Source: an uncultured delta proteobacterium | Lineage (GTDB): Bacteria; Desulfobacterota; Syntrophia; Syntrophales; UBA2185 | Assembly (NCBI GenBank): GCA_963729715.1 | Contig: CAVSPA010000004.1 | Coordinates: forward strand, 384,001 to 448,000 | DNA length: 64,000 nt | Direction of reading: 5' to 3' | The notes under the pieces: model-generated | The model's database searches: none | Seen by the model: only the letters and a program-made list of their open reading frames with translations | What the model was told of the DNA's origin: nothing | Shown here: positions 16,827-32,981 of the stretch, one piece after another | Layout of the letters: the number at the start of each line of letters is the position of its first letter | Position numbering within the stretch: position 1 is the first letter of the stretch | Position numbers and translations under genes: made by a program

Positions 16827-17516
16827 CTATCTCAATCGAACAACTGGCACATCTTTCATCAGCTTGTCTCTGAAGTATTCCATCTCCTCCTGCGAATACG
16901 CTTCGCACTTCAGAAATTCTTTATCAAGAGTCCTCGTGGGAATAAACTGCTGCAATATGTAACAGCTCGCATTTCTCAGCAACTCCCCCATCTCCAAGAG
17001 ATCTTCTTCGTGAAGCAGTTTTTTGGGAACGGTTGTACGAAATTCGTAAGGTATACCAGATTTCATGATTATTTCCATGCTCTGTCTGATTTTACCCTCA
17101 TCAATCTTTGACCTTGTCACTGTCTTATACTTATGAAACGGTCCCTTCATATCCATCGCAAGATAGTCGACAAGCCGGCCGCTGATGAGTTCTTCCAACA
17201 CCTCCGGACAGGAACCGTTCGTATCTAATTTAATCAAATACCCGATATTTCTAACACGCTTTATAAAGTCGATCAAGTCGTGATGTATCGTCGGTTCGCC
17301 ACCCGTAATCGTCAGCGCATCAAGCTTTCCCTTACGTTTTTCTAAGAAAGAAAGTACGCACTCCTCCGACAGACATTCTTTATAGAGATCCGGATCCACT
17401 AATTCCGGATTATGACAGTAGGGACACCTGAAGTTACAGCCCTGCGTAAATGCAATTGCACATATCTTTCCGGGATATTCAATCAATGATACCTTCTGCA
17501 ACCCGCCAATCTGCAT
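16827..17516 (-). CDS. nrdG: Anaerobic ribonucleotide reductase activating radical SAM protein
   Basis: GCNFRCPYCHN, TGGEPT, KLDTNGS; follows nrdD. Confidence 0.92.
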   Translation of the reverse strand: MQIGGLQKVSLIEYPGKICAIAFTQGCNFRCPYCHNPELVDPDLYKECLSEECVLSFLEKRKGKLDALTITGGEPTIHHDLIDFIKRVRNIGYLIKLDTNGSCPEVLEELISGRLVDYLAMDMKGPFHKYKTVTRSKIDEGKIRQSMEIIMKSGIPYEFRTTVPKKLLHEEDLLEMGELLRNASCYILQQFIPTRTLDKEFLKCEAYSQEEMEYFRDKLMKDVPVVRLR

Positions 17517-17519
17517 ATT

Positions 17520-19610
17520 CTAAAAACTGAAAACCTTTCTCCCTCTATATTCTTCTTGTTTCCCCAAATTCCATTGTTTAACGGGTCGCAGATAACCGAC
17601 CACGCGTGAATATATCTCACAGGCTTCCATGCAAATGGGACATGTCTCTTTCTCGCCGCTCAAATAACCGTGCGAGGGACAGACACTGAAGGTGGGTGTA
17701 AACGTAACGTAGGGCAAGTGATACTCGGTACATACTTTGCGCACAAATGCCTTTACAGCTGACGCATCGTTAATTCTTTCTCCTGCATATGTGTGAAAAA
17801 CGGTTCCCCCCGTGTACCTCGCCTGGATTTCATCTTGCAGATCCAGAGCTTCAAATATATCATCCGTAAAGTTCACAGGCAACTGCGTAGAGTTAGTGTA
17901 AAAAGGTTCACCGTTGTCCTCTGCATAAACATCCTCATTAGCACAGATAATGTCTGCATATTTTGCCTTATCGATTTTCGCAAGGCGGTATGAAGTGCCT
18001 TCTGCAGGAGTTGATTCAAGATTATAGTTGTTCCCTGTTTCCTTTTGGAATTCTATAAGCATTTTTCTCATGAAGTCTAATACCTTCAATGTGAATTTCT
18101 GCCCTTCCTCAGAGGTTATACTCTTGCCTAAAAAATTGAGACAGGCTTCATTCATGCCAACAAGACCAATTGTTGAAAAGTGATTTTTCCAATATTCGCC
18201 AAAGCGTTTCTTTATATCCCTCAGGTAATATTTTGTGTACGGATAGAGGTTTCCCTCTGTAAACTTCTCCAGAACTTTTCTCTTGGTCTCCAGACTCTCC
18301 TTGGCAATGATCATGAGTTTTTCGAGACGTTCCATAAATTCGTCTTCTGTCTTAGAGAGGTAACCGATTCTCGGCATATTTATCGTAATCACGCCAATAG
18401 AACCAGTTAAGGGATTTGAGCCGAATAAGCCACCTCCCCTTTTTTCCAATTCCCTGTTATCGATACGAAGTCTGCAGCACATGCTCCTCGCATCTTCCGG
18501 GTTCATGTCTGAGTTTATGAAATTCGAAAAATAGGGCACCCCGTACTTGGCCGTCATTTCCCATAAGTCGTCAAGATTACGATCCTCCCATTTGAATTCC
18601 TTTGTTATGTTATATGTTGGTATGGGAAATGTGAAAACCCTGCCTTTGGCGTCTCCATCAGCCATGACCCGAAGGAAAGCCTTATTGAAGAGATTCATCT
18701 CCTCCTGAAAATCCTTGTATGTCTCTTTCTGCGGTTTGCCTCCGATAATTACATTTTGATCGGCGTAATACTTTGGTACTGTCATATCCAGCGTGACGTT
18801 TGTAAACGGGGTCTGAAAACCTACCCTCGTCGGTACGTTAATATTAAAAATAAATTCCTGCAGAGCTTGCCTTATTTCACTATAACTCAGACGATCGTAC
18901 CTTATAAAAGGAGACAGAAGGGTATCAAAATTTGAGAAAGCCTGAGCACCGGCCGCTTCCCCCTGAAGGGTATAAAAGAAATTAACTACCTGCCCCAAGG
19001 CACTGCGAAGGTGCTTGGCCGGCTTGCTTTCAACCTTACCGGACACTCCCCTGAAGCCTTCCAGAAGAAGATCATATAGATCCCACCCCACACAGTATAC
19101 GGAAAGAAGACTCAAATCGTGGATATGAAAATCACCATCCGAGTGGGCTTTTCTGATTTCCGGCGAATAAATCTCATTCAACCAGTAGACCTTACTGACT
19201 TCGGAAGATATATAGTTATTCAAACCCTGCAAAGAATAATCCATATTGCTGTTCTCATTAATCTTCCAGTCCTTCTTCTTCAGATACTGATCCACCAGAT
19301 CAACCTCCATTTTATTGGTAATTTCTCTTAATCTGGCGTGTTGATCCCTATATATAATATATGCTTTAGCGGTCCGACGATAAGGAGAAGACAAAAGTAC
19401 CTCTTCCACGATGTCCTGGAACTCTTCCACCGTCATAACTTTGTCGTCAAAGAGCTTCTCCGCTAAATTAAGAACCTTTATCGTGAGTTTTCTCGCTGTG
19501 GCGCCATCAAACTCACCCGTTGCGTCTCCAGCCTTCTCAATGGCATTGGTTATCTTTTCTGCGTTGAATTTTACTAACCGGCCATCCCTTTTTCTTATCT
19601 TTTCATGCAT
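17520..19610 (-). CDS. nrdD: Class III anaerobic ribonucleoside-triphosphate reductase with ATP cone
   Basis: Likely start MHEKIRKRDG with AAGGAG RBS; SMCCRL, STPAEG, zinc site CPSH..CPIC, glycyl radical loop YSRVVGYLRP. Confidence 0.95.
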   Translation of the reverse strand: MHEKIRKRDGRLVKFNAEKITNAIEKAGDATGEFDGATARKLTIKVLNLAEKLFDDKVMTVEEFQDIVEEVLLSSPYRRTAKAYIIYRDQHARLREITNKMEVDLVDQYLKKKDWKINENSNMDYSLQGLNNYISSEVSKVYWLNEIYSPEIRKAHSDGDFHIHDLSLLSVYCVGWDLYDLLLEGFRGVSGKVESKPAKHLRSALGQVVNFFYTLQGEAAGAQAFSNFDTLLSPFIRYDRLSYSEIRQALQEFIFNINVPTRVGFQTPFTNVTLDMTVPKYYADQNVIIGGKPQKETYKDFQEEMNLFNKAFLRVMADGDAKGRVFTFPIPTYNITKEFKWEDRNLDDLWEMTAKYGVPYFSNFINSDMNPEDARSMCCRLRIDNRELEKRGGGLFGSNPLTGSIGVITINMPRIGYLSKTEDEFMERLEKLMIIAKESLETKRKVLEKFTEGNLYPYTKYYLRDIKKRFGEYWKNHFSTIGLVGMNEACLNFLGKSITSEEGQKFTLKVLDFMRKMLIEFQKETGNNYNLESTPAEGTSYRLAKIDKAKYADIICANEDVYAEDNGEPFYTNSTQLPVNFTDDIFEALDLQDEIQARYTGGTVFHTYAGERINDASAVKAFVRKVCTEYHLPYVTFTPTFSVCPSHGYLSGEKETCPICMEACEIYSRVVGYLRPVKQWNLGKQEEYRGRKVFSF

Positions 19611-19664: not shown

Positions 19665-19711
19665 CCCCAATATATTGGGGTAGGACTTAATCATACTACT
19701 ATATATTGATA
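19665..19711. promoter_or_regulatory. Tandem NrdR boxes
   Basis: cccCAATATATTGggg (19665-19680) and ctaCTATATATTGata (19696-19711), 31 bp apart, upstream of nrdD. Confidence 0.85.
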
Positions 19712-19718: not shown

Positions 19719-19756
19719 GACAAAAAAAAGGTTTTTTTCTGTTTCATTTCCTCCGT

Positions 19757-19804
19757 TACTATCTGCAAGGAGGTTTGACCAAATTGCAAGAAGGTTTGAC
19801 CAAA
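19757..19804 (+). repeat. Element end with two tandem putative transposase-binding sites (Mu R1/R2-like)
   Basis: TGCAAGGAGGTTTGACCAAA and TGCAAGAAGGTTTGACCAAA at 21-bp period. Confidence 0.85.
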
Positions 19805-20002
19805 AAGAAGTGCAGTAATAACAGCCAAATAGCATATGACACACTAATCCGGCCAGATTTCAATCTTGTTTTAACAGAGAAATCTGCCGGATATATTTTT
19901 TAAATATTAATCGAGCGGGTCATTTATTCTTACGACTTTACCCGCCATTTTTTTCTCCAACTAACTGCAAAAAATGTCCATACTGAGAGCCCGTGATGCG
20001 CC

Positions 20003-20596
20003 TCATGCTATCACCTTCTTTATATCGTTCACTCTCGATTTTAAGAGATATATGATCTGCAAATCCACCGGCCGCACTTCCTCCGTGGCTAAGGTCCTTA
20101 TGGAATCTAGAAGATCAGGGTAACCCTTAAAATCAATAGTGACCTCTGTAATTGCGCCAGGAGCGGCCTTTCCCGGGAGAGACGACTCTTGCTTCGTGAC
20201 CTCTGAATCCTTCCTCTCAAGAGGTTGCTTCGGCTCTTTCTTGGCCCTTGCCATGTCACCCAGGCATTTTGCGCAATAGGGGCTGCGCTCGGACATGGTT
20301 TCTCTCTCGTTACACTTCTTACAGATTTTCTTTATGTCCGCGCCTGGCTTCAGCTGATCCCTCGCCATATCCGCATCCCTTTCGTTAGATCTAATCGGCT
20401 CAGCAGCACGCAGGCGGCCCCTGCTGCTCACTTTGCGGCCAGTAATCCATCCTTCCCTTCCCGCCTGTCCGCAATGCCTGCAGATCAGGCCTGCCTTGCC
20501 AATGCCCGGAACGTAATCTTCTTCTACGTGTTTCGATCCACATTTCCCACAGGCAATGGCCATAGTTAAAGAGTCCCATCCGCACGTCTTGAGCAT
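20003..20596 (-). CDS. Zinc-finger-containing hypothetical protein
   Basis: CGKC..CRHC and CKKC..CAKC pairs; GAGGAG RBS; last gene of the element. Confidence 0.7.
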   Translation of the reverse strand: MLKTCGWDSLTMAIACGKCGSKHVEEDYVPGIGKAGLICRHCGQAGREGWITGRKVSSRGRLRAAEPIRSNERDADMARDQLKPGADIKKICKKCNERETMSERSPYCAKCLGDMARAKKEPKQPLERKDSEVTKQESSLPGKAAPGAITEVTIDFKGYPDLLDSIRTLATEEVRPVDLQIIYLLKSRVNDIKKVIA

Positions 20597-20715
20597 TGCT
20601 CCTCAGTGCTAGATTGGAGTCTCCACATCTTTCAGAGTGCGGCTGTATAGCTCCTCATATGGGATGAACTCCAACCTAGCTGCCGGAAGGAGCGGCTATA
20701 AGGTCTATTAATCAA

Positions 20716-22230
20716 CTATGAATAGAACTTGTCATAAGCAGCTGCTATGGCATGTGCCGGTGGACTCTTCTTATAATCCGCGACAGCCGTCGCATCGTTC
20801 TGCTCGGCGATGGCCTGCTTAATCGCGTTGAAATCAATATCGACTCCCGTGAAATTTGTTACGGCAATGAAGATTTTGCGGGCTGTATCCTTGTCGATCC
20901 ACTCCTGGTTCTCGGCAGTCATGAGTGCCGTGGCAACAGACTGTACCAGGGTTCCGAGTTTGCCGACGTCCTTTGTCTCCATTTGAGGCGTCAGGATGGA
21001 GTAATTATCTGCGTCTTCATTAGACACGTTGATATATCGGGTCAGCCGGGATTGTCTGATCTGATATTTGAACATGTCTTCGAGTATGTACTTCACCTCG
21101 AGCTGCTTCGTGCCGAGCATCTTTAGCGCCGGCGCTGCCATTTCCTCCGCCGTGGCGCGGTTCACGTCTCCACCGCCGCCATACCAGTGCTCCGGATATC
21201 CAAAACGTCCCATGATGTGGTTACGGAAGATCCTGGCGCCCGTCTCCGCATCTATTGCCTGCAGTTTTGGGCTTTCTGCCGTGAGTGTGACTTTTTCATT
21301 GTGTCCGAACACCGATCCAGATTTTTTCGTGAACGCTTCGAGGTGTTTTTTAATCTCCTTCTCGTCTGCGCCCTGTACCTGGAGGTCCCAGATGAAACTA
21401 TTGAGGAGCGGCCACATGTCCGCATAATCAAAAAGGTACTGTTCATAGGCGTCAAGCCAGTCGGCTACGAACAGAAGGGATGATCTCCCTCGAGGAGAAT
21501 TTGATACGTTGTTAATGGACCAATAGAAACAATCGCCGTCTGTGAACTGGTCTCGGAGTTGCTTTGCTACTGGAGAAAGGACATAGTCGGCTTCTTCGGG
21601 AAGGATCGTCCGGTAATTTTTTGCCTCCGTCGAGACGTTGAATCCTGCTATCTCTCCGATCCATCCCTTTGTCTGCACGCCGATGGGAACTTTTACGTTC
21701 TCCGGGTCCGTCATCACACCCTTGATCTGCGCGGGATCTATATAACCGAGCCGTACTCTCCCGGTCTGTGCCGCCACAAATGTGGGGAAACACAACTCGC
21801 CGAATGTGTGGAGCTCGCCCACGTGTTTCGGGAAATAAAGAGGCAACCTGTTTATCGGGTCATTCCAGAAACCATCGAGCACCGTCTTAATGTCGGGATT
21901 TTTCGCCTCGTAAGGGAGCCCCTCGGCGAGAATAAAAGCCGTGGTGATATCGATAAGCCATCCGGCAAGCGGATTCGTCTCCCGCAGCCAGTAGGCGATC
22001 TCGATCATGCGGTCCTGGAGGACAGGCACGAGATCTCGATTCGGAGTCGTGGTAAGACGCCGCCAGACGGTACCGTCCGGATCGGCGACCGGTGCCATCA
22101 GGGTATCTGAGTAAGAGGCTGCTTTGATCTCCGCGACCTGCTTGTCTACTGCGGCCTGCATCTTCTGGTCGACTCTGCGTTGGATCTCGCCGCTGAACAT
22201 CTTCTCGCGCAGTTTAGTTAAAATGCTCAT
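20716..22230 (-). CDS. Putative phage portal protein
   Basis: 504 aa; TNPLAGWLID, FWNDPINR, FGELCF, RLGYIDPAQI, RGRSSL..WLDAY, GGGGDVNRATA resemble portal families; next to the capsid gene. Confidence 0.72.
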   Translation of the reverse strand: MSILTKLREKMFSGEIQRRVDQKMQAAVDKQVAEIKAASYSDTLMAPVADPDGTVWRRLTTTPNRDLVPVLQDRMIEIAYWLRETNPLAGWLIDITTAFILAEGLPYEAKNPDIKTVLDGFWNDPINRLPLYFPKHVGELHTFGELCFPTFVAAQTGRVRLGYIDPAQIKGVMTDPENVKVPIGVQTKGWIGEIAGFNVSTEAKNYRTILPEEADYVLSPVAKQLRDQFTDGDCFYWSINNVSNSPRGRSSLLFVADWLDAYEQYLFDYADMWPLLNSFIWDLQVQGADEKEIKKHLEAFTKKSGSVFGHNEKVTLTAESPKLQAIDAETGARIFRNHIMGRFGYPEHWYGGGGDVNRATAEEMAAPALKMLGTKQLEVKYILEDMFKYQIRQSRLTRYINVSNEDADNYSILTPQMETKDVGKLGTLVQSVATALMTAENQEWIDKDTARKIFIAVTNFTGVDIDFNAIKQAIAEQNDATAVADYKKSPPAHAIAAAYDKFYS

Positions 22231-22310
22231 GCCATCCTCCCATTTTTTTTCTTAAGGTCATCGCATAAAATACTGTTCATCATTCAACGAATCCTATTGC
22301 ATAGATATTA

Positions 22311-23474
22311 TCAGGGAACGATGGCCTTATAACCGCCATTAGGATCGATGATGCTGCCTCCATAAGTGTGAATGCATTTGTATGCATAATAATCCGCCTT
22401 CCAAGCAAGATCGCTCTCGGTCGAGTAGATAAACACGGGCTCCTCATTGCCGTCCAAATATGACATTTCGATAATGGGAACCTCGTGCGGATCACGCAAA
22501 ACCCCCCAGTCATTTGGGTCAGTCATGAATGGACATGTGATGATTCTTTCGTTATTTTCGCCAAAAAGTTCACAGCAGGGATTTGTAACCTTGGTCGTAA
22601 GATCATTGCCCGTGAAAGTATATTCATTCTGATTCACCTTCACGGCGGTATCCCACATATTCGCTGGGACAACTAGAGACCAATTCAACGATGCGAGGTC
22701 GAACTCGATCTTCTCGCCTGAGCCCGGCTCCGTCATGCCTGCAAGAGCAGTAATTGCTGCCGTGAGAGGCGCTATATCGAGTGCAGTACTCCCAAGATTT
22801 CCGTGAGGGCTGGTGAACCATGCGTTGCCATCCATGCAGCTGCTATTGCCTATGAAGAAATTCCATACAAATTTGGCATGAGTTCTGCGGGCTGCGCGGC
22901 CGATTTTATCCAGCATCTGCTTTATTATTCCGATGTGGTCATTCACAAAGACCCTTCGGGATATCATAAGCAGCCCGCCGCGCTGTTTGCTATCGTACTG
23001 CACCTCTGTATCTTTGACGATATTTAATTGAGGCCAATCAGTCGTTTCTGGATCCACGATATCAAGGTCATTAAAATAATCATACTGAACAGCGTGGACG
23101 GTGCGGAAGTCCTTGACCGGCCTTTTTAGAGATATCAAAGCTTCCTCTCGATATGTGAATTGTCTATAGACATTTGAAAGATATAACGACAACACATCCT
23201 GGAGAGCATACGTAAAAGTAGCCGTATTGAAACTTGCTCTCAGAGTTACCGGCAAATTGTCAGGGAAAAAGAGGCCCATAAATTTGTTGTCTCCGGTAAA
23301 ATGCAGATAAGCCTCTCTGATTCCCCGGAATGCGGGCACTCCCTTGCTGTCATAATTGGGCAAAAAGAGTTTGGCGAACGCTGCCCGGCTCTTATCCACT
23401 TCATTCTCTCCCACCTCGATCATATTTCCAGTTATCGATCGTTCAATGTCCTTTAATAATTTTAATCTGTTCAT
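22311..23474 (-). CDS. Putative HK97-fold major capsid protein (Mu gpT-like)
   Basis: VKDFRT, GGLLMISRRVFVND, IGRAARRT..FVW, DGNAWFTSPHGN, LVVP, YLDGNEEP capsid-type motifs. Confidence 0.8.
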   Translation of the reverse strand: MNRLKLLKDIERSITGNMIEVGENEVDKSRAAFAKLFLPNYDSKGVPAFRGIREAYLHFTGDNKFMGLFFPDNLPVTLRASFNTATFTYALQDVLSLYLSNVYRQFTYREEALISLKRPVKDFRTVHAVQYDYFNDLDIVDPETTDWPQLNIVKDTEVQYDSKQRGGLLMISRRVFVNDHIGIIKQMLDKIGRAARRTHAKFVWNFFIGNSSCMDGNAWFTSPHGNLGSTALDIAPLTAAITALAGMTEPGSGEKIEFDLASLNWSLVVPANMWDTAVKVNQNEYTFTGNDLTTKVTNPCCELFGENNERIITCPFMTDPNDWGVLRDPHEVPIIEMSYLDGNEEPVFIYSTESDLAWKADYYAYKCIHTYGGSIIDPNGGYKAIVP

Positions 23475-23640
23475 CGCTCTCGCTCCTTTTTTATTTTTTT
23501 ATTCGACTATTGTGAAGGAATGCTGCGTTGCCCATGTCCCTTACCTTCCGATCTGTCGCCTGTGTAATTCATCCAGTTTGTTGGATATTTTTTTTGTGAA
23601 GTCATTCATCGTCCGCGCATCTCCGATTACGTTGCCCATC

Positions 23641-26043
23641 TCAGTGGCCCCACTGTTCAAGTTTCTTCGTATATGGATAAATTAGGGTCGCAATATCTTT
23701 TGCGGCCTGTTTTTCCTGAATGACCGTTCCGTGATAGTGGATGTGGATAGCCGATCCACTGCCCTTGTCATAGGCTGCCGTCTGCGCCCTATTAAGCACA
23801 CGTTCACCGCTCTGCAAAATTGCCGGGAACTCATCCGGCGCGAGTCCGGAATGCAGCCGAGGAGCGCCTGCGAAGGCCACGGATGGCATCATCCGCGTGG
23901 GTGCATAGTCCGAGCCGACGACGCCGCCAGAATGAAAGAGAGAGCTAACCGCATCCCAGGCGGAACTGACAGCATTCGTCACTCCACCTACGACAGTGCT
24001 TCCGGCGCTCTTCAGGAAATCCATGCCGTGACCGCCCGTTAGTGAATCAGCGAGTAGCAGCGCCTGCGAAACACCCGTGGGATCAGGATCCTCTCCTAGT
24101 GCAGACAGTTCTCCCACGTCCCACATTGCCTGAATGTCTCCGGTGTCGGCCAGTTGAGTCAGCGACTCAAGACTTGCATCTGCGTTGGGGCCGCTACTCC
24201 CAAAGAGACCGCTTAGACTCCCCAGAAGTCCGGATCCCGTCAGTCCCATGTTACCGGCCTGACTCGCGGTCGACCCGCCACTGCCTCCCATGCCCGGCAG
24301 ACTTATGCCCATCATTTCTGCGGCCTGGAATGTGGCCCACTGCACCGCCATCTGAGCAACGACATCGGTAAACTTCTTCAGCATCGCATCGGTGAACGTG
24401 GTCCAGTAAGTGCTGAAACCCTGCAACTGGCCTTTCCATCCATCGAAAAGGACCGTGCTCAAGGTACTTGAGGCGTTCGACGAGAACGCCGTGACACCAT
24501 CGGTCATGGCCTTTCCGGTTGTCATCCAGCTCGCCTGCATTTGATAAAGCCCCTGACGCCAACCGCCGACGAAAGTGTCATTGTATTCCTGGATCATGTC
24601 CTTGAGCCGGTTAATTTCGTCGTCCTCGACGATCTTTCCCGTGAGCATCTCGTATTGTGCGATATCGTCAATGGCAGCCGTCTGCGCCGCGAACTTCTGG
24701 TCCTGGACGTCCATATAATTCTGAGCGTTCTTCACAGCCATGTCCTGGAGCCACTCATAATGAGTCAATGCGAGTTGTTGCTGCTTCGCGTAATAGTCTG
24801 CAGTGGCCAGGTTCTTTTGTCTCTCAAGGTCATTCTTCTTAGCGGCGACGTCTGCGTCCAGAGCCTCAATCTTCGCGGCCACCACTGTGGCATCGGAGAC
24901 TTTCTGTCGGTCCATGTCTGTCCTGGCCGCCGCCTCTTTACTGAACATGTCGACCTGATCATCATAGTACTCATCGAGGAGCGCCTCTCTTTCCGAGATG
25001 CTCTCCACTGCGATCGCATAGGTGCTCTGCTGATAGACTTGCGACAAAGCGGCGTTGTATTTGATCCTCGACTCTTCGTCATCGAAATAAGCCTTATTGG
25101 TTGCCTTGAGAGATTCGATGGCGAGTTTCTGGGCCTCGACCGCGCCGAGTCGCGCCAGGGCGTCGGCGGTCAATGCCTTGGCCAGGGTCGTCGCTTCAGT
25201 GATATTCCAGAGTTTCTGAGCTTCAGCAGTAAGTCTAATTTGTTCATTGAAGTTCTCCGTCGTTTTTGTCGCATCGTTGAGATCCTCACCAACCACCATC
25301 AGGTTGGCTATAAAGTCTACAAGGCACATACCGGCTGTTTCCTTCAGCTCAGTGAGTCGGGCCTTGAAGCCCTGCACCTTCTCGGCCATGTTCTCAGTTT
25401 CCACCCCAAATTGCGCACTCTGCGTCGCCGCATTGGCCATCACTATGTCATAGAGATTGATGTCGGTTATGCCAGCCGACAGCGCCTGCTGGACGATCAT
25501 CATCTGATCTTTCGTGACGAGGCCATATTGCCTGAGCGACCGTGGCATCTGCGTGGAGAGGGCATCGGTGATTGTTTCATAGGCAGTCTGAACGTCTTGC
25601 CCCGTCACACGGGCCGAGACTCTCGCAGTCTCCATGATGTCTGTCAGTTGGTCCGCCGAGAATCCAAGTACCATTCCCTTGACGGCTTTCTGCATTATCG
25701 ATGTTTCATCAACAGTTCCAGCTGAGGCACGCTTCATGGAGCTGAGGAGCTGGTCAGCACTTACGTTTGCAGACTCCGCCACGATGCCGAAGGAATCTGC
25801 TGCCTGGAGCGCCTTTGCGCCCATCTCCGACCACTGAATGGTCTTTTCCATAGTGACCCAGGCGGCGGCGACCCCGGCAGTCATCTGGACCCACTTGTTA
25901 CTGAAGAAACTCATCGAGTCAGACGAAGATGCGGCCGACTGGCTCACCTGCCCCATCGACTGCTTCACATTATCGACAAACTGCTGGACGACAGCAGTGC
26001 CTTTATCGTCGACGGAGATTTCGATTTTCAGTTGACTGGCCAT
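23641..26043 (-). CDS. Putative tail tape measure protein
   Basis: 800 aa, Ala/Gln-rich helical; N-terminal LKIEISVDDKGT; C-terminal FHSGGVVG..APRLHSGLAPDEFPAILQSGERVL. Confidence 0.8.
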   Translation of the reverse strand: MASQLKIEISVDDKGTAVVQQFVDNVKQSMGQVSQSAASSSDSMSFFSNKWVQMTAGVAAAWVTMEKTIQWSEMGAKALQAADSFGIVAESANVSADQLLSSMKRASAGTVDETSIMQKAVKGMVLGFSADQLTDIMETARVSARVTGQDVQTAYETITDALSTQMPRSLRQYGLVTKDQMMIVQQALSAGITDINLYDIVMANAATQSAQFGVETENMAEKVQGFKARLTELKETAGMCLVDFIANLMVVGEDLNDATKTTENFNEQIRLTAEAQKLWNITEATTLAKALTADALARLGAVEAQKLAIESLKATNKAYFDDEESRIKYNAALSQVYQQSTYAIAVESISEREALLDEYYDDQVDMFSKEAAARTDMDRQKVSDATVVAAKIEALDADVAAKKNDLERQKNLATADYYAKQQQLALTHYEWLQDMAVKNAQNYMDVQDQKFAAQTAAIDDIAQYEMLTGKIVEDDEINRLKDMIQEYNDTFVGGWRQGLYQMQASWMTTGKAMTDGVTAFSSNASSTLSTVLFDGWKGQLQGFSTYWTTFTDAMLKKFTDVVAQMAVQWATFQAAEMMGISLPGMGGSGGSTASQAGNMGLTGSGLLGSLSGLFGSSGPNADASLESLTQLADTGDIQAMWDVGELSALGEDPDPTGVSQALLLADSLTGGHGMDFLKSAGSTVVGGVTNAVSSAWDAVSSLFHSGGVVGSDYAPTRMMPSVAFAGAPRLHSGLAPDEFPAILQSGERVLNRAQTAAYDKGSGSAIHIHYHGTVIQEKQAAKDIATLIYPYTKKLEQWGH

Positions 26044-26073
26044 GATTCTATTCCTCTACAGTAATAAGATTTT

Positions 26074-26334
26074 TTAATGCAGTGTCATACTTTCATTTCG
26101 AACCGCGCCGGTCGCCTCATGCGGCTTCCGACGACTCTCCCGCCTTTGATGTATCTGCTTGCCAATGGCAACAAGAGCATCCTGCAGGCTGAAAGACCCG
26201 CTTTTGATTAGAAGCATTAAGGTGATTTCAAATTCACGCTGCGACATGACCTGCGCAGCCTTTTTGCAATATTTGGTGACAACAACAGTTCCTTTATCGT
26301 CGATGGTTGCTCTTATTTTTATTTTTCCGAACAT
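26074..26334 (-). CDS. Small hypothetical protein with TMP-like N-terminus
   Basis: KIKIRATIDDKGTVVV resembles the TMP start QLKIEISVDDKGTAVV. Confidence 0.6.
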   Translation of the reverse strand: MFGKIKIRATIDDKGTVVVTKYCKKAAQVMSQREFEITLMLLIKSGSFSLQDALVAIGKQIHQRRESRRKPHEATGAVRNESMTLH

Positions 26335-26371
26335 GTCGCTTCACTCGTCCCGGATCGCAGTCTTTAATATT

Positions 26372-26404
26372 AAAAAAGGGGCCGCGCCGATCTGCACAAC
26401 CCCC
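26372..26404 (-). terminator. Intrinsic terminator between early and structural genes
   Basis: Minus strand GGGGTTGTGC-AGATCG-GCGCGGCCCC-TTTTTT. Confidence 0.7.
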
Positions 26405-26494
26405 TCATGGTTGCCCTCATTATGTTTGCCCTGGCAGGGCGGTGAGGGTATCCGCCTTTTCGGTAGCTGGCCTAGCCAGGACGCCCTTTATCCT

Positions 26495-26974
26495 TCAACC
26501 CGCAGCTGATGCTGCGGTGGAAGTCTTCTCCTTCTTCCCGGTGATCTCCTTTGCCAAAGCTTCAAACCGGTTTGTTAAGTCGATGATAGGCATCGCCATA
26601 TTGTGCCTGAGTTCCAAAAGCTCCTGCAGCTTCGCATTGATAACGAGCAGGTCCTCTGGCCGCTTGTGCGGACTGAGAAATTTATACGTGTCTTCGTATT
26701 CGTCCACGATGAAACTTGTAATTGCTTCACGATCATTAATATCAAAAAAAGGCATGCACATTATCTCGATTGCTTGCGCGTAATCCTGGATTATATAACC
26801 CAGTTCCTCGCCGAAACGTGCCAGGCCTTCACCTGCGTCGTTGCCCCTTCCGGCCTTGCAACAGAGTGTCACGAGCGTATCTCCAAGGGCATTCAATTTT
26901 CTCGCATAATGTGTAACGTCCTCAACGGCACCTTCGTCGCTTCTAAACGGCTGTCTTTTTTCTTCCCTCTCCAT
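26495..26974 (-). CDS. Hypothetical protein
   Basis: 159-aa ORF with GGAGG RBS, in the early operon. Confidence 0.7.
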   Translation of the reverse strand: MEREEKRQPFRSDEGAVEDVTHYARKLNALGDTLVTLCCKAGRGNDAGEGLARFGEELGYIIQDYAQAIEIMCMPFFDINDREAITSFIVDEYEDTYKFLSPHKRPEDLLVINAKLQELLELRHNMAMPIIDLTNRFEALAKEITGKKEKTSTAASAAG

Positions 26975-26986
26975 AACGCACCTCCC

Positions 26987-27466
26987 TCATGATTTCTGGT
27001 GGCCCTCCTCAACGGCCCTGCCTATTGATTCTTTGATCACCATGTGTTTCAAGGCTAAAATTATTTTGATCCCCTCTTCTTTAGTTCCCGGTTTCACCTT
27101 GCCGATGATTTTTTTCGAGAAGCCCATAAGCCTTTTCGGATTGTCCTGCCAGCCGAGTTTTTCCTCCATATATCTGATAAAATTCGTCTGCTCCGGCGTT
27201 ATAATTTCGAGTACATTCTTCGGGAGATCCCGCGCCGGTTTCCTCACCTTTTTGATCTTTGCCCCTGCCTCAGCGAACTTCTTAACCACTTCGTGAACGT
27301 CGTCCAGCATGAGCTCCTTGATCGAATCCTTTCCAGTACACCCCTTCACCATTTCATGAAGTCCGTCATCATCCAGGCCCAGCTGCCGGGCTAAGGCCCA
27401 GATCATTCTGATCTGCTTCTCTGAAATCACGGCAATCCCTCTCTTGCCTGCCGACATTTCCCTCAT
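26987..27466 (-). CDS. GemA / Mu gp16 (DUF1018) family protein
   Basis: QIRMIWALARQLGLDDD..GKDSIKEL..LGWQDNPKRLMGF..IILALK; typical of transposable phages. Confidence 0.8.
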   Translation of the reverse strand: MREMSAGKRGIAVISEKQIRMIWALARQLGLDDDGLHEMVKGCTGKDSIKELMLDDVHEVVKKFAEAGAKIKKVRKPARDLPKNVLEIITPEQTNFIRYMEEKLGWQDNPKRLMGFSKKIIGKVKPGTKEEGIKIILALKHMVIKESIGRAVEEGHQKS

Positions 27467-27795
27467 TCACCTCCCTCCGCCTTTAATATCTTTAGAAGCC
27501 GCACATAGAAGGCATCACACGCCTTCCGCAGTTTCTTCTCATCAATCGGCTGTATGCGCTTGATGAACCGTGGTCGCACATTCCTACCTGTCTGGCCTAT
27601 TCTGTGAGTAGAACTTCTTTTGAGGCCGGTTAGCCGTGCCAGGACATCGCAACCAACTCCCCTCTGGGCAAGAATGTGGATCAAAGCGTCGCGTTCCGCC
27701 CGATAAGGATTGTCCTTTTTGAGGGTCTCTAATTGCCGTGGCGTCAGTTCATTTAAGAGCTTCTTATACTCTGATGGATATCTTTTCCCGCCCAT
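27463..27795 (-). CDS. HTH protein, possibly Mor/C-like activator
   Basis: RDALIHILAQRG...LARLTGLKRSSTHRI resembles the Mor C-terminal HTH. Confidence 0.45.
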   Translation of the reverse strand: MGGKRYPSEYKKLLNELTPRQLETLKKDNPYRAERDALIHILAQRGVGCDVLARLTGLKRSSTHRIGQTGRNVRPRFIKRIQPIDEKKLRKACDAFYVRLLKILKAEGGE

Positions 27796-27818
27796 GCCAA
27801 AGCCACCTCTTAAAGCAT

Positions 27819-28784
27819 CTACATCTGGTTGATCTCGCGCAGCAGTTCGAGCGTGACCTGTCTATTTTCGGCCACGGCGACCCGAAGCGTTTTTTTCAAG
27901 AGTTTGACCATTGAACGGAGCCGACCCACGCTATTAGCCTTGTACAGCAAGAATTCGAGAGCCTTCCGCTCAATCCCTCCGGGAATGATACTATCAACCA
28001 ACATGGAAACGTCCGTTGTCGTAACATCACGCTTGATATGGCATCTGACGCCGATCCTGGAGAGAATCTGGTCAAATAAAACAGCTCTGCGGCCGCCCCG
28101 CATCTGTTGATACAAACTTTCCTGACCCATCAATACAACTCCAATCCCTGTAGCATCATATATTCGTCTCACCGCCTCAATGCTTTCCCAAGAAAGAAAA
28201 TGTGCTTCATCGAGAATCAAAAGTCGGCGGCTGCCGGATAAGCGGTCAATGATGCGCTGCATGAAGACATGGCTCGTCGCGTCATACCGAGAGACGCCGG
28301 GTAGCCCCTGAGAAATCAACAGCAGTGTGGACCCGGGCGCTCGCGTCGTTATATCTGCAGTCCTGAGAAGCGTATCCGGATGGTTTCTCTTGTAATGCCG
28401 CCCTACCTCTGTTTTCCCGCTTCCTGCCGGTGCGACGACAACCCCCATATCGCCGTCTTCATGACAGCATTTCAGGACACCCAATATCTGCTTCGCGGTG
28501 TCGGTGAGGCAGAAGCCAGAGGATACAAAAGCAACTCCATTGCGTTCTTCGCGGTCGAGAAACATTGCGACGGATCTTTCTAATCCGGTGTAATCGTACC
28601 CAGCCTCCCCTTTACGATATGCCTCCAGCAGTGTCGGCGAGATAGAATTTTTAGCGGCAAAACCCTGCCCCGTCATGTCAGTATAGTCCACGTATTTCTG
28701 AATGCGTTCCTGTAAAGTCGGAGCACTCATGCTTTGCACGGTCTCTTTAGTCTTCCTTGAAATTTGTTTCAGAGTTGCCTGCAT
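27819..28784 (-). CDS. MuB-like AAA+ transposition ATPase
   Basis: Walker A APAGSGKT, Walker B LLILDEAH, QILSRIG; follows the transposase. Confidence 0.9.
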   Translation of the reverse strand: MQATLKQISRKTKETVQSMSAPTLQERIQKYVDYTDMTGQGFAAKNSISPTLLEAYRKGEAGYDYTGLERSVAMFLDREERNGVAFVSSGFCLTDTAKQILGVLKCCHEDGDMGVVVAPAGSGKTEVGRHYKRNHPDTLLRTADITTRAPGSTLLLISQGLPGVSRYDATSHVFMQRIIDRLSGSRRLLILDEAHFLSWESIEAVRRIYDATGIGVVLMGQESLYQQMRGGRRAVLFDQILSRIGVRCHIKRDVTTTDVSMLVDSIIPGGIERKALEFLLYKANSVGRLRSMVKLLKKTLRVAVAENRQVTLELLREINQM

Positions 28785-28793
28785 GTTCTCCCC

Positions 28794-30722
28794 CTAAAAA
28801 TCCTCAGGATCATCGTTATATTGTAAAGTCCTCACAGAGCCCATCGCCATTGAACTGGCGCGAAGGTAGCGGTCTAAAATATCCGGCCGCGAGGTAGCAT
28901 TTGCAGTATTTTCCTCAGCCTTATCCGCCTCAAGTGCTTTTGCGGAATCCCGGGCGAGCTTCTCTTTTTTGTGAAATTGTTTGACGTTTGAATCAGCCGG
29001 TTGAATATCGCGCTGGCGAACTTTTTCCTGGTCTTCGATTTGCATCGCCAGCAGCAGCGGATCATCGATGACATCTTCTGCCTCAATAATTTGCTTGCGA
29101 AAATTTTTGATCTTCCTGCGTATCCTGGCAGCGTCCTTAACACTTTGGAGGGTAATTTCTGATCGGTAGTGTGATGGCGTTTCGAGCTTCGCGGCGCAGA
29201 AAACGGCTCCCTTGTAAATGATGGCAGCTCTCGTGATATCGCGTGGATCCCGCCGCACTTCTACCCGCTCTCCTGACAATTTGAAGAGATTGTCGTCCCG
29301 ATACAGGAGGCCCTTTATGGCCACTGACGAATCACGGACGGTCGCCGCATTGACGTCCATCAAGAGAAAATCGAGCAAGTGCTGCGAGGGGATCACTGCC
29401 TGATGATTTTCCCAGAATGAAACAGGAGGTCGCCCGGTTGTGCAATGGGGCAGAGAATTTCTCTCTATTATAAGTTCGTCGACTTTTTTTGAGATTTCTT
29501 CAAAGGTCAGAAGCTTACCGGATTTGATTTCATGATGCAGTTTTTTGGGCCTTGTTTTTATGCTGTGGCCGCGATATCCCGGCCAATCCTTCATCCGGTC
29601 CGTAAACCAGCCAAAATTCGACTCGATCAATTTTTCTCTCGCATTGTAGGGGGCAGCAAAGAATGTTTCAATTCCCAGTTCGACGAGGACGCCGGCAACA
29701 TGATGCGCTCTGTAGTCTCTGCCCAAGTCGATGTAAAATGTCTTGCACGGACCACATTGACTTATCGCATATATGACGGCCTGACCTATGACCAAGGCAT
29801 TCGGCGTCGCTACAAGGATCCACCCAACAAATTTACGGCTCTTCGCCTCCAGAATCGCTACGAGCCAGGGGAACACTGCTTTGCCGCGATAAAGGCAGCA
29901 CACGTCCATCTGTTTACTGTCTCCTACCCAGACCTCATTTAATGAGCATTCATCCCAGTCTCTACGGATGTATGGCGAATATAAACGATCCCACTCCTGC
30001 TTATTACGAACCAAAAGTTGCTGCGCATCTGTCCATTTGCGATCTATATAATCTGCCACTGTACGATAACTCGGGCATCGATATTTGCCATCAAAAGCTT
30101 TGCGAAGGTCCCCGTGGACCTTCCTTACTGGTGGCCCGAGGGGCTGCAAATAGGCATTCTCGATAAATGCTGCCATCTCTCTATTGATGACAGGCTGCTT
30201 CTCTCCATTCCGCCAAGCCGGAACCAGCGCAGGATAACCGCCGCTCTGATAGCCAGTCACGTATCTATCAAGGCTTTTATGACCAATGTTGTGAGACTTC
30301 GCGAATCTCCTTTTTACTTCTGTCAATTTTCTTCCCGGCACATCAGCTCGTATCTTCAACCACTCTCTGGCGAGCGCCATTCGTTTATCAGCTTCTTCGC
30401 GCTGCCAGGGTTTGAGATCAACGTATGTCGCTTTTCTTTCATCGTTTTTTTTAACCGGTGCACCACCTGGATCTGGCTTTGACATGTCTGTTCTTTTTTC
30501 AATGATGGCCATCCGTGCCTCTGCGGGGAGAGACTCAATACCGTATTCCCGCCCACCGCCCTTCCCTTCTCGTTTCCGTGACTGCCAACGTTCCTTCTTT
30601 GCCTTTCTGAGGATAGCACTCTCGGTTGATGGTACACCCGGCAACTCTATCCCTGCCAACTCACGGGCCGTGAAGAAATTCTTCTTCTCTGCAGCATCAA
30701 CTCCGATCTGGTTCATCGGCAA
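28794..30722 (-). CDS. MuA-like DDE transposase
   Basis: N-terminal Mu wHTH (FTARELAG..LPG..GKGGGREY); catalytic VWVGDS, FYIDLGRDY, KLIESNF; Mu C-terminal domain (VEVRRDPRDI). Confidence 0.93.
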   Translation of the reverse strand: MPMNQIGVDAAEKKNFFTARELAGIELPGVPSTESAILRKAKKERWQSRKREGKGGGREYGIESLPAEARMAIIEKRTDMSKPDPGGAPVKKNDERKATYVDLKPWQREEADKRMALAREWLKIRADVPGRKLTEVKRRFAKSHNIGHKSLDRYVTGYQSGGYPALVPAWRNGEKQPVINREMAAFIENAYLQPLGPPVRKVHGDLRKAFDGKYRCPSYRTVADYIDRKWTDAQQLLVRNKQEWDRLYSPYIRRDWDECSLNEVWVGDSKQMDVCCLYRGKAVFPWLVAILEAKSRKFVGWILVATPNALVIGQAVIYAISQCGPCKTFYIDLGRDYRAHHVAGVLVELGIETFFAAPYNAREKLIESNFGWFTDRMKDWPGYRGHSIKTRPKKLHHEIKSGKLLTFEEISKKVDELIIERNSLPHCTTGRPPVSFWENHQAVIPSQHLLDFLLMDVNAATVRDSSVAIKGLLYRDDNLFKLSGERVEVRRDPRDITRAAIIYKGAVFCAAKLETPSHYRSEITLQSVKDAARIRRKIKNFRKQIIEAEDVIDDPLLLAMQIEDQEKVRQRDIQPADSNVKQFHKKEKLARDSAKALEADKAEENTANATSRPDILDRYLRASSMAMGSVRTLQYNDDPEDF

Positions 30723-31074
30723 CTTCTCCAGAATTTATTTTATTGCATTCACGCATCTTTTTGATACGATGCTCTGTAAATTCCTTATTACGATAACGTA
30801 GAGATATCCTGGCGGGCTCGTGATCCTTGTTGTAACGATGGGGCCACAGAACCCAGGGCGGAACGCCTAACTGCTCTGCGATGATCTTTTCGTATTTTGG
30901 GCAGGGCTGATGTTTGACGTGAACAAAGTTGGTCCTGTTCACGTTATGGATTCCCGCGAGTGCACTGAGCGTTATACCCTTAAGCTCAAGGCCGTGTTTT
31001 ATAGTAGCCCAGATTGCGAATTCATCATCCGTGCAGCTGATTGATTCTGTTTCTCTTTGGTTGCTTTGCATCAT
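30697..31074 (-). CDS. Ner-like transcriptional regulator
   Basis: IKHGLELKGITLSALA..PCPKYEKIIAEQLGVPPWVLWPHRY. Confidence 0.9.
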   Translation of the reverse strand: MMQSNQRETESISCTDDEFAIWATIKHGLELKGITLSALAGIHNVNRTNFVHVKHQPCPKYEKIIAEQLGVPPWVLWPHRYNKDHEPARISLRYRNKEFTEHRIKKMRECNKINSGEVADEPDRS

Positions 31075-31082
31075 GATGGTTA

Positions 31083-31125
31083 TTTATAAGGAAAATAGAG
31101 CGAATTGTCAAGAAAATAAAGCGAA
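31083..31125 (-). promoter_or_regulatory. Early promoter (Pe-like) with operator direct repeats
   Basis: Minus strand TTGACA (31106-31111)-17 bp-TATAAA (31083-31088); GAAAATARAGCGAA at 31091 and 31112. Confidence 0.75.
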
Positions 31126-31157
31126 GTAAGAAAAAAAACACTATGATTGGCTAACTT

Positions 31158-31694
31158 ATGGAGAATTTTAGGAAAAGATTACGCATCGCTATAGATAATG
31201 AGTCCGTAAATGCGTTTGCGGACAGATCGAGGGTGGCTGAGAGTGTTCTTAGAAAATATTTATTGGGTCCAACCGTGCCAGGCATGGAGAACCTTGTCTC
31301 TATTGCCAGGGCTGCAGGAGTGAACATCAAATGGCTCGCCACAGGAGAGGGGCCGAAAACCGGAATGGAAATAAATATTGACCTTCTAGTTTTTTTGCTG
31401 GCAGCCTGTGCGGAATATGAAAGGGCACTGAATGTACCCCTTTCTTACGCCGAAAAGGCCTTTCTAATAAGCGCGATTTATAATAGATGGTGGCAAGATG
31501 GTGTTGAAGTAATTGGCCTTGGAGAATTTATTAAGGCAGATATCGAAGCGTTGCACCTATCAATGAAGAACGAGGAACTGTTGCGCTATCGTTTGAGTCA
31601 GTTATGGGACAGGGAATACGCGGATGCCATAATGGAAATGAGATCTCGCTCGAAATGTTTGAGAGGTGCGCTTAAAAAGAAAAAAAAGAAGTAA
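31158..31694 (+). CDS. XRE/CI-like repressor, divergent from ner
   Basis: FRKRLRIAI..SVNAFADRSRVAESVLRKYL.G..PGMENLVSIARAAGVNIKWLATGEG. Confidence 0.88.
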   Translation: MENFRKRLRIAIDNESVNAFADRSRVAESVLRKYLLGPTVPGMENLVSIARAAGVNIKWLATGEGPKTGMEINIDLLVFLLAACAEYERALNVPLSYAEKAFLISAIYNRWWQDGVEVIGLGEFIKADIEALHLSMKNEELLRYRLSQLWDREYADAIMEMRSRSKCLRGALKKKKKK

Positions 31695-31845
31695 GGCCAT
31701 AAAAGAGTTGTTTGTGGACTGTGTTACTGGGCATTTCCGATACATTTTTCACACTGGGGAAGAACGCGCTCCCCGTGATCGTTCTTAGAAGAGCGCCGCC
31801 GGGGCATTGAGGATAACGTTGTGCTTTCTGGGGAGAGTTTTAAAA

Positions 31846-32148
31846 ATGGGCCGCATATTATTTGGAGTGTTTTTCTTGTTGGTTGGTTCTTGTAATGCCT
31901 TGCAGGCATTCGGAGATCGAAATTTGAACGCCGCCGTGGGAGGCGGGTTTATCGCGCTCGTTTTAATAGTAGGCGGTGTAGCACTGCTCATCTCTGGCTT
32001 AAAAAGATATATGAAGCCGTCACCAGCTGCAGAGTCCAGTGCTGCGGAACATAGGAAGTGTCCCTTTTGTGCCGAACTTATTAAAAGGGAGGCTATCACC
32101 TGCCGGTATTGCGGGAAGGATTTGCCCCCAGTCGCTGCAGCCGAATAA
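31846..32148 (+). CDS. Small membrane protein with C-terminal zinc ribbon
   Basis: Two TM helices then [20 protein letters not shown]. Confidence 0.75.
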
Positions 32149-32260
32149 TTTACTTTTTTCTCCATGTAACTGCAAAAATCTACCTCGCGGCACTGTCTAC
32201 TTTTCTATCCCTTATTGGACGCATATCTGAATGTTTTTGTTTTTATGTCAATATTCTATG

Positions 32261-32399
32261 GTCAGAGTTAGCGGCCGTCTTTTTATATATCACGAAATAG
32301 AAATTATTAATAATTCCCATTTATTAAACGTAACTCTGACCGAGCGATCAAAAAATCTGCGTCAGAGTTACGTTTTGGTCAGAGTTGGCTGTCAGAGTT
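32261..32399. repeat. Five GTCAGAGTT repeats including a 15-bp perfect inverted pair
   Basis: Copies at 32261, 32332 (inverted), 32361, 32378, 32391; AAACGTAACTCTGAC / GTCAGAGTTACGTTT. Confidence 0.85.
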
Positions 32400-32624
32400 G
32401 CAAAGAGGTTTGGTCTAAATAATTTGCAATGGTTCATCTTTTCAATAAGTTATAAAAGACCGGTATCGCTGCGCGACGCGGCCGCGGCGGGTCCGCAATA
32501 GCCATTTTTGGTCAAACCTCGGTTCTTGCGCGTCCCCGCCGAAACCCGCACCCATCCCAAATCTTCACGGCTTATCCCAGAACTTCCCGCACACTTCCTT
32601 GGCCATACCTTCCTGCATCTAGTA
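32398..32624 (-). repeat. Element end with three putative transposase-binding sites (Mu L-end-like)
   Basis: Terminal site 32599-32624; TTGGTCAAACCT at 32508-32519; oppositely oriented TGCAAAGAGGTTTGGTCTAA near 32399. Confidence 0.75.
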
Positions 32625-32981
32625 TCCGTTACTGAATCGCCAAGTGTGCGCAATACTGCGACATTAAGGAGTCATCTGATCAAAAGTATCGTCCGCAAGG
32701 AAGCGGACTGCCATAAATTGAGGCTGAGCAAAGGCGGCACGGCAAGTCATTGGCATCCAAGATCAGCCTTCTCTCAAGCATTGTTTTATGACTATTGAAG
32801 GGTAATGATGTTGCAAACTGGCGGGATAAAGAGAAAAAATACGGCACCACCCGGGAAACCAGCAATCACCGCGGCATAGCTTCTGTGAAAATCCTATTTG
32901 GTTATGTACGAATATGCATGTCTGCAAAAACGTTTTCCAACCGAGACGGGCCTCATATGTATCATGCCCGATCCTTCAGCC

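Follow-up and report, generated by a model that had tools for sequence, protein, structure and literature searches.

What kind of element carries the transposition genes of a Mu-like phage together with capsid, portal and tape measure genes, and no terminase, protease, connector or lysis gene? This question is raised by a 12,868-bp element in a 64,000-bp stretch of contig CAVSPA010000004.1 from an uncultured delta proteobacterium of the Syntrophales; this whole stretch is called the window here. A sequence-only reading of the window had proposed a satellite equipped with three morphogenesis proteins of its own. Our analysis indicates that the proposal was right in kind: the element is probably a phage satellite on a Mu-type transposition chassis, driven by its transposase. 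It is intact, lacks genes needed for a virion and belongs to a recurring family, as expected of a satellite. The three proteins did not hold as a set, with the capsid the only core gene among them (portal in 0 of 15 loci, tape measure protein [TMP] sporadic).

The element occupies positions 19757 to 32624 of the window. The sequence-only reading had described intact ends at exactly these positions with a perfect 5-bp duplication, and both were verified.

19752-19756, plus strand: left copy of the target-site duplication, TCCGT, found as a single copy in the empty sites of relatives.
19757-19804: orf197-side end, with a TA terminus, an inverted repeat and two 20-nucleotide tandem repeats 21 bp apart, which are likely transposase sites.
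32599-32624: repressor-side end, with a TA terminus and inverted repeat.
32625-32629, plus strand: right copy of the target-site duplication, TCCGT.

The two ends match as imperfect inverted repeats at 20 of 26 positions, and the motif of the orf197-side end recurs at the element ends of relatives. The termini are TA...TA, in contrast to the TG...CA of Mu. The element was absent from this site beside nrdD in all 40 related genomes compared, where both host flanks were present without it. Among the 11 relative loci that were fetched, nine aligned across the insertion junction, four of them without a gap there, and the remaining two aligned with the left flank only. No larger prophage was seen at the site in the 40 genomes and 11 loci. 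Because of the ends, the 5-bp duplication and the empty sites in relatives, we conclude that the unit arrived by one DDE transposition at its present size or nearly so, which bears out what had been proposed. All listed open reading frames (ORFs) of the element are open, and a tblastn search with 13 element proteins showed a single copy in the host genome and no homologue of these proteins elsewhere in it.

From the repressor end, the gene order is orf113 and the repressor (both on the outward strand), ner, MuA, MuB, a helix-turn-helix (HTH) gene, GemA, orf159, orf86, TMP, capsid, portal and orf197.

20003-20596, minus strand: orf197, with a Cys-rich zinc-ribbon-like region and a conserved C-terminal region, possibly ribbon-helix-helix.
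20716-22230, minus strand: portal protein, 504 aa (phrog_10963, E 1e-41), an accessory gene.
22311-23474, minus strand: standalone HK97-fold major capsid protein, 387 aa (PF25209, E 5e-24), without a fused protease; the family marker.
23641-26043, minus strand: TMP, 800 aa, an accessory gene identified via a phage TMP relative.
26074-26334, minus strand: orf86, which over its N-terminal 32 aa is similar to the start of the TMP (41%).
26495-26974, minus strand: orf159, conserved in many family members.
26987-27466, minus strand: GemA-like protein (PF06252, E 1.7e-12).
27463-27795, minus strand: HTH protein, conserved in the family (cluster c7), with weak HTH matches (E 0.014).
27819-28784, minus strand: MuB-type AAA+ ATPase (phrog_296, E 3e-51) with invariant Walker motifs.
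28794-30722, minus strand: MuA-type DDE transposase (PF02316/PF09299; phrog_310, E 7e-100).
30697-31074, minus strand: Ner-like repressor (phrog_769, E 2e-19; PF13693).
31158-31694, plus strand: divergent immunity repressor with an HTH (HTH_3).
31807-32148, plus strand: orf113, with a membrane segment and a zinc ribbon, moron-like.

The repressor, ner, MuA, MuB and GemA ORFs were uninterrupted as claimed, and family matches were found for them. The label Mor-like was not confirmed, as the HTH protein has weak HTH matches only. MuA and MuB are adjacent and co-oriented, and MuA residues D268, D332 and E363/E367 are invariant. No terminase, protease, connector, tail or lysis family matched the element in Pfam, PHROGs or NCBIfam, in agreement with the sequence-only reading. 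No integrase, primase or RepA match was found among its 14 ORFs, and no TniQ/TnsD or Cas gene was matched in Pfam. The portal, capsid and TMP identities stood. The claim that all three were full length failed for the capsid, which corresponds to the C-terminal part of a fusion and whose short form is conserved. The TMP had no direct match to any TMP family, and its label holds through 71% identity to a TMP (phrog_339, E 1.6e-8) within a phage tail module. The portal sequence gave no match against the PDB. No relatives of orf86, which could be a TMP decoy or relic, were found in the fetched loci. The protein encoded by orf197, the last gene in most family members, is predicted from its sequence to bind DNA. 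Its profile matched 228 clusters at E<=1e-10, and the wider family may therefore be larger; ESM Atlas searches with orf197 and orf159 gave only leads under 0.9.

The capsid gene carries most of the argument. The window capsid aligns only to the C-terminal ~300 positions of protease-capsid fusion families, and its predicted fold is HK97 (pLDDT 87.7; best Foldseek PDB match E 2.5e-9). A homologue search limited to proteins of 212-678 aa returned 131 proteins, and 82 full-length standalone capsids of 385-422 aa, 44-84% identical to the window capsid, were aligned. Scans with this alignment yielded the best 80 of 309 metagenome loci, 64 viral loci and additional genome matches, unlike single-protein scans of IMG/VR with the capsid and with MuA, which gave no match. 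Of the 36 standalone capsids in a tree of 110 capsid domains, 35 formed one clade apart from the 71 fused capsids (SH-aLRT 99, a quick support method used without bootstrap). The lone standalone capsid outside this clade, whose gene begins 75 bp from the edge of its contig, is probably a truncated fusion. The gene neighborhoods differed in the same way, with some rows in the counts being re-assemblies of one element: 15 of the 48 standalone loci had at least 5 kb upstream, and the transposase module was present in all 15 and portal, TerL and TerS genes in none of them, whereas portal and gpF were present in all 41 of the 79 fused loci with at least 5 kb upstream. Capsid dN/dS was 0.10-0.24 in seven relative pairs, and that of MuA was 0.19-0.21. 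The window capsid and its nearest DNA relative were 66% identical with saturated dS, and GenBank phages gave capsid matches at 22-28% only. Counting the host genome, 4 of 339 genomes from the order and 3 of 401 sampled from the phylum had a standalone capsid. These alignments and trees point to a conserved clade of its own, derived from a protease-capsid fusion and kept under purifying selection.

A capsid without a protease partner might also have been domesticated as an encapsulin-like compartment or a gene-transfer shell unrelated to the spread of the element, and encapsulins were indeed among the ranked fold matches. In that search, however, phage capsids ranked first and equal, the capsid gene adjoins phage-derived genes (c3, described below, portal and TMP), and no conserved cargo enzyme accompanies it, which makes domestication extremely improbable. 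A 440-aa capsid outside the standalone clade, beside a TMP-like gene, was observed in G140:C1 (L192, L197), perhaps a separate compact element.

Many other elements of the same architecture were found at different sites, as the sequence-only reading had anticipated. Ten capsid-bearing elements, including that of the window, had inverted ends and 5-bp duplications and ranged from 8,162 to 13,632 bp.

Element sizes: L075, 8,162 bp; G059, 8,747 bp; L070, 9,002 bp; L072, 9,045 bp; L047, 9,134 bp.
Element sizes: L062, 9,294 bp; G168, 9,364 bp; L061, 10,989 bp; window, 12,868 bp; G711, 13,632 bp.

A clean duplication was not found for L078 and L129, and L127 is a 10,134-bp contig that spans an element end to end. 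Family members are usually laid out as repressor, ner, A, B, HTH, GemA, orf159, c3, capsid, c2 and orf197, with repressor–ner–MuA–MuB–GemA–capsid–orf197 as the core. The c3 gene encodes a ~100-aa protein, a homologue of which also precedes the capsid gene in full phages (a fold search gave a best Z of 4.1 and no usable match), and c2 encodes a HEXXH metalloprotease-like protein. In the window copy, orf86 and TMP stand in the place of c3, and the portal in that of c2. Single virion genes also occur in relatives: TMP in L061, L079, L094, L102 and G711, gpF in L127 and a neck protein in L070 and L077, as well as TerS and a protease fragment in the capsid-less G405 and G363, respectively. The first of these two (G405:C4, L248:7036-15714; 8,679 bp) belongs to the window transposase clade and has TerS and two similar lipoprotein-like genes replacing the capsid; one TGA was flagged in the genome search match to its MuA, yet the gene read as an open 642-aa ORF. 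The second (G363:C207, L252), of the same clade, has a Mu protease-like fragment, a RadC-like gene and orf197. In IMG/VR, all occurrences of the window transposase clade were in compact elements; of the 25 matches, the remaining 23 were 22-30% identical or a short piece. For two full prophages of ~38 kb (G625, G475), the ends scored 18-19 where the background was 17, and we make no claim for them. Taken together, these are mobile, intact and recurrent elements of 8-14 kb that have one virion gene in common, a protease-less HK97 capsid. Two family elements were also seen in tandem (L058:5421-6976), with the orf197 end of one adjoining the repressor region of the other.

The portal and TMP have a different history. 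The window portal was 93% identical in amino acids and 87% in nucleotides to a portal located between TerL and gpF in IMG/VR contigs L018, L019 and L022, and in the portal tree it was sister to the portal of the L018 phage (support 100/99). The window TMP was 71% identical to the L200 TMP overall and 92% over residues 290-590. Since L022, L018 and L200 overlap at 100% identity and represent one phage, portal and TMP point to the same phage. That phage encodes a terminase, gpF, a protease-capsid fusion and a tail, and its capsid domain is only 35% identical to the element capsid. Its early region is not in the assembled contigs; other phages with the window portal family carry MuB and GemA. The third-codon-position GC content (GC3) of portal (0.63) and TMP (0.65) was phage-like (0.60-0.68), in contrast to that of capsid and MuA (0.51). 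The structural genes showed no sign of relaxed selection, in line with the earlier proposal: besides the capsid values given above, the portal had accumulated 47 synonymous and 12 amino-acid substitutions on the window branch, against 61 and 10 on the phage branch, with 14 ambiguous. Both ORFs have stayed open across dS 0.8-1.8, and their boundaries are gene-sized. Portal and TMP thus look like later captures from a helper lineage, accessory in the family. As a second element with capsid and portal, P0002/P0122 (the same 9,985-bp longest contig) is unconfirmed, and the tree does not pair P0002 with the window portal alone.

These comparisons bear on two simpler explanations. One is decay of a Mu-like prophage by internal deletions that spared its ends. 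Such decay could account for the phage homologues of every part, for a capsid that descends from a protease-capsid fusion and for the lack of a helper. The order TMP-capsid-portal, however, is the reverse of the phage order, which rules out a single deletion. Moreover, the capsid and the portal and TMP come from different lineages, no pseudogene remnants were seen, relatives have empty sites, and many compact elements share the same core at other sites. This explanation is largely refuted and has very little probability left. The other is a passive mini-Mu that travels in normal helper heads via a shared pac signal, with portal and TMP as neutral hitch-hikers acquired by recombination. A precedent exists in engineered mini-Mu elements, which are packaged passively in helper heads. 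Such elements are mentioned in the accessible part of PMC8705779. The absence of the portal from the other standalone loci and the phage-like GC3 of portal and TMP, suggesting later arrival, agree with this explanation. It leaves a dedicated capsid clade under purifying selection unexplained, and neutral passengers would not be expected to stay open over such divergence with gene-sized boundaries or, as with TMP, to recur in at least five other elements. We therefore consider it quite improbable.

A strong target-site bias was missed by the sequence-only reading.

16827-17516: gene for the nrdD activase, host, after nrdD.
17520-19609, minus strand: nrdD, anaerobic ribonucleotide reductase, host, intact (NCBIfam PRK08270, TIGR02487, TIGR02495).
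19668-19708, minus strand: paired NrdR-box-like sites with a 31-bp period over the nrdD promoter, in host DNA outside the element; a candidate target signal.

The element lies just upstream of the nrdD promoter, with its end 49 bp from the nearest NrdR-like box, and leaves nrdD undisturbed. A pattern search of the 3.76-Mb host genome, which has an nrdR gene, found one NrdR-type box pair, the one beside the element. This pair fits the NrdR site features given in the available text of PMC13584703, namely two 16-bp boxes with a 15-16-bp linker and conserved C4, A6, A8, T9, T11 and G13. Ten element ends lay 42-53 bp from the first box of such a pair.

Distances to the NrdR-like pair: window, 49 bp; L061, 49 bp; G405, 50 bp; L072, 51 bp; L070, 52 bp.
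Distances to the NrdR-like pair: L064, 52 bp; L047, 52 bp; L054, 53 bp; G565, 45 bp; L068, 42 bp.

L068/G565 and L070/L072 may each be a single insertion event. The gene downstream of the boxes, where on the contig, was nrdD or a class II reductase gene (nrdJ); L047 and L064 show the boxes only. Eight of the ten ends were oriented one way and two the opposite way, G405 being opposite to the window element. G405 was located by its transposase after the pattern had been noted and is thus an independent test of it. The nrd and mraZ elements formed one 11-row transposase clade (FastTree 100). With G405 and G363 added, this clade has 11 known flanks: eight NrdR pairs (45–53 bp), two mraZ promoters and one tRNA promoter, G363 ending just upstream of that of tRNA-Phe. 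For elements with other transposases, the sites were next to tRNA genes, within a gene or upstream of an Rrf2-like gene. The insertion target follows the transposase lineage. Because capsid elements with other transposases occupy other targets, the capsid cassette has moved between transposase lineages.

The signal that is read could be the NrdR protein, the box DNA or the promoter; these element ends also have a -35-like hexamer 32-49 bp away. A complex prediction for MuB and NrdR scored 0.00 and gave no answer; it was used neither for nor against. The product of orf197 was ruled out as target selector, since G405 and G565 are at nrdD without orf197 and tRNA-adjacent elements have it. Six capsid-bearing elements (L051, L053, L057, L065, L075 and L078) have an end close to the 3' side of a tRNA-Leu, -Phe or -Glu gene, and their transposase, where on the contig, is of another lineage. 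Two others, G168:C4 and G059:C42 (L193-L196), occupy sites just upstream of the mraZ promoter that are separated by ~11 bp; their MuA proteins are 49% and their capsids 93% identical, a contrast that suggests module swapping.

How would such an element spread? We propose that it stays repressed until a Mu-like helper infects and lifts the repression, whereupon MuA and MuB would copy it by transposition. Its capsid protein would build or reshape a small head, either by itself or together with helper capsid, in the manner of Ccm in SaPIs. That head would admit ~9-14 kb plus host DNA and exclude the ~40-kb helper. By our own estimate, a T=4 head has ~35-45% of the capacity of a T=7 head, or ~13-18 kb for a 40-kb helper, which fits elements of 8-14 kb plus host DNA. 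The helper would supply protease, terminase, neck, tail and lysis functions. The near-helper portal would keep the head compatible with the helper terminase and neck, and the TMP of the element would yield chimeric tails as in PLEs. The full proposal is a new satellite class in which a Mu-type DDE transposase both integrates and multiplies the element, a dedicated capsid makes small heads, virion genes collected from helpers (portal, TMP, TerS, gpF, neck) steer assembly, and MuB loads beside NrdR at ribonucleotide reductase promoters, giving a safe harbour ~50 bp away. We offer this combination tentatively, as a possibility to which we give somewhat less than even weight.

Several observations weigh against a satellite. 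A full Mu-like helper in the same genome, for which the sequence-only reading had suggested a search, was not found in the host genome by tblastn of the 13 element proteins or by a helper TerL search (no match, with no positive control). The PF03237 terminase was absent from five carrier genomes including the host (a control was detected in 5 of 14), and no fused capsid was found in carrier genomes. There was no particle, induction or multi-copy signal, the data being a single genome copy and contig-only runs. Neither TerS nor a recognizable pac site was found in the element, which leaves the selection of DNA for packaging unexplained. The window copy lacks c3 and c2, the genes flanking the capsid in most relatives. 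Its MuA is ~20 residues shorter (in frame) after D332 than in all ten aligned relatives, with a spacing of 35 residues to E367. The dS of the portal to the phage is 0.81, and its purifying signal may stem from time spent in the phage. Strong site preference also fits poorly with random replicative transposition in the style of Mu. Two further data sets were neutral. Four DNA sequencing runs (contigs only) held scattered 99-100% identical pieces of the element and flanks with no joints, from which neither copy number nor particles can be judged; no RNA run with the element was listed. Three contigs stop at element termini (L127 at both ends, L077 and L055), as either variable flanks or plain assembly breaks would produce.

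The missing packaging signal would also suit a targeted transposon whose virion genes serve as decoys for defence, its capsid, portal and TMP poisoning the assembly of infecting Mu-like phages while the element spreads by conjugation or general transduction. Single virion genes of unrelated assembly steps are swapped freely among relatives, as would be expected of decoys, and purifying selection is expected here too. On the other hand, the capsid clade retains a complete HK97 fold and the small c3 gene that precedes the capsid in full phages, sizes hold at 8-14 kb though the cargo varies, and a 93% phage-like portal with few amino-acid changes seems compatible rather than poisonous. We regard decoys as rather unlikely and the satellite as the better account.

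Near each end of the element lies a copy of one 26-bp motif (window 19947-19974 and 32152-32179), both copies being oriented alike, and the putative helper phage has a single copy where its neck gene begins (L200:5844-5869). No further copy was found in the genome or fetched loci at <=4 mismatches, and the motif may be a shared regulator site, a packaging signal or a relic.

Next, we compared the element with known systems. Mu-like phages (Mu, D3112, B3; 'Saltoviridae') share the repressor-ner-A-B-GemA early module, the DDE transposase with its AAA+ partner, repeated end sites and the 5-bp duplication. They are ~35-45 kb with full modules, whereas the element is one-third of that size, lacks terminase, protease, neck, tail and lysis genes, and strongly prefers NrdR-box promoters. 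In the Mu-like phage Ab30, ~5% of insertions fall in hotspots 55-61 bp from BIME motifs, as stated in the accessible part of PMC5977238, which is a weaker precedent for fixed-distance targeting. A cf-PICI is likewise small, with its own major capsid and, as in the window copy only, a portal, and needs a helper tail, as proposed for the element. The available text of PMC10690885 lists capsid, protease, portal, connectors, both terminases and HNH as cf-PICI genes and gives a tyrosine integrase as the typical means by which satellites integrate. The element instead has a DDE transposase and a 5-bp duplication, no integrase ORF, and no protease, connectors or terminases. PICI/SaPI, P4-like, PLE and PICMI satellites rely on a site-specific recombinase and origin replication genes, and the element has neither. 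SaPIs use an integrase and a primase/helicase with an origin, in contrast to its transposase chassis. The closest model for the element capsid gene is the SaPIbov5-type PICI with Ccm, a single satellite homologue of the helper capsid that makes small T=4 heads (PMC8569155, in the part available). PLE satellites of Vibrio cholerae build their own TMP, ~20% identical to that of the helper and accompanied by a chaperone, into chimeric tails (PMC12987554, accessible portion). The element TMP is 71% identical to a phage TMP, has no recognized chaperone and sits on a transposase chassis.

Tn7-like transposons (TnsC/TnsD, CAST) use a DDE transposase and an AAA+ ATPase to insert at a fixed distance beside a conserved site, leaving the gene unbroken. 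The element shares these enzymes and the fixed distance (42-53 bp, ten ends), and differs in having no TniQ/TnsD or Cas match and in occurring in both orientations (8 and 2 of 10). By these comparisons, the element falls outside Mu-like phages, cf-PICIs and integrase-based satellites and resembles a Ccm-type satellite on a Mu chassis. None of the satellite families in the accessible part of a 2024 review (PMC11389934) is Mu-type, and the available portions of 10.64898/2026.05.11.724261, PMC11364771, PMC8705779 and 10.1101/2025.02.19.639094 describe no Mu-type satellite. Our literature search found neither a Mu-type satellite nor nrd targeting, although a prior description is possible, with subscription papers largely and supplements wholly outside the search.

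On condition that packaging is helper-dependent, the element would be a categorically new satellite type. Transposase-based satellites would widen the definition of satellites, and transposable phages would have parasites of their own. Mu prophages presumed to be broken could be re-read by two markers, the standalone capsid clade and orf197, and the swappable virion genes would show, as a natural series, how satellites come by the parts with which they hijack helpers. That insertion keeps a fixed distance from NrdR operators suggests that a host factor guides MuA/MuB to the target without TniQ, a point relevant to how these enzymes choose targets and to tools for site-directed insertion. Mobile elements have received little study in the hosts, which are Syntrophales-related anaerobes.

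Two further features lie near the repressor end and farther along the window.

32259-32400: four 10-nucleotide repeats and a perfect 15-bp inverted repeat, operator or enhancer candidates.
60599-62897: an IS21-family istA/istB pair, unrelated to the element.

The moron-like orf113 was not found in other fetched loci, and repeats resembling those at 32259-32400 are also present in L061, L070 and L071.

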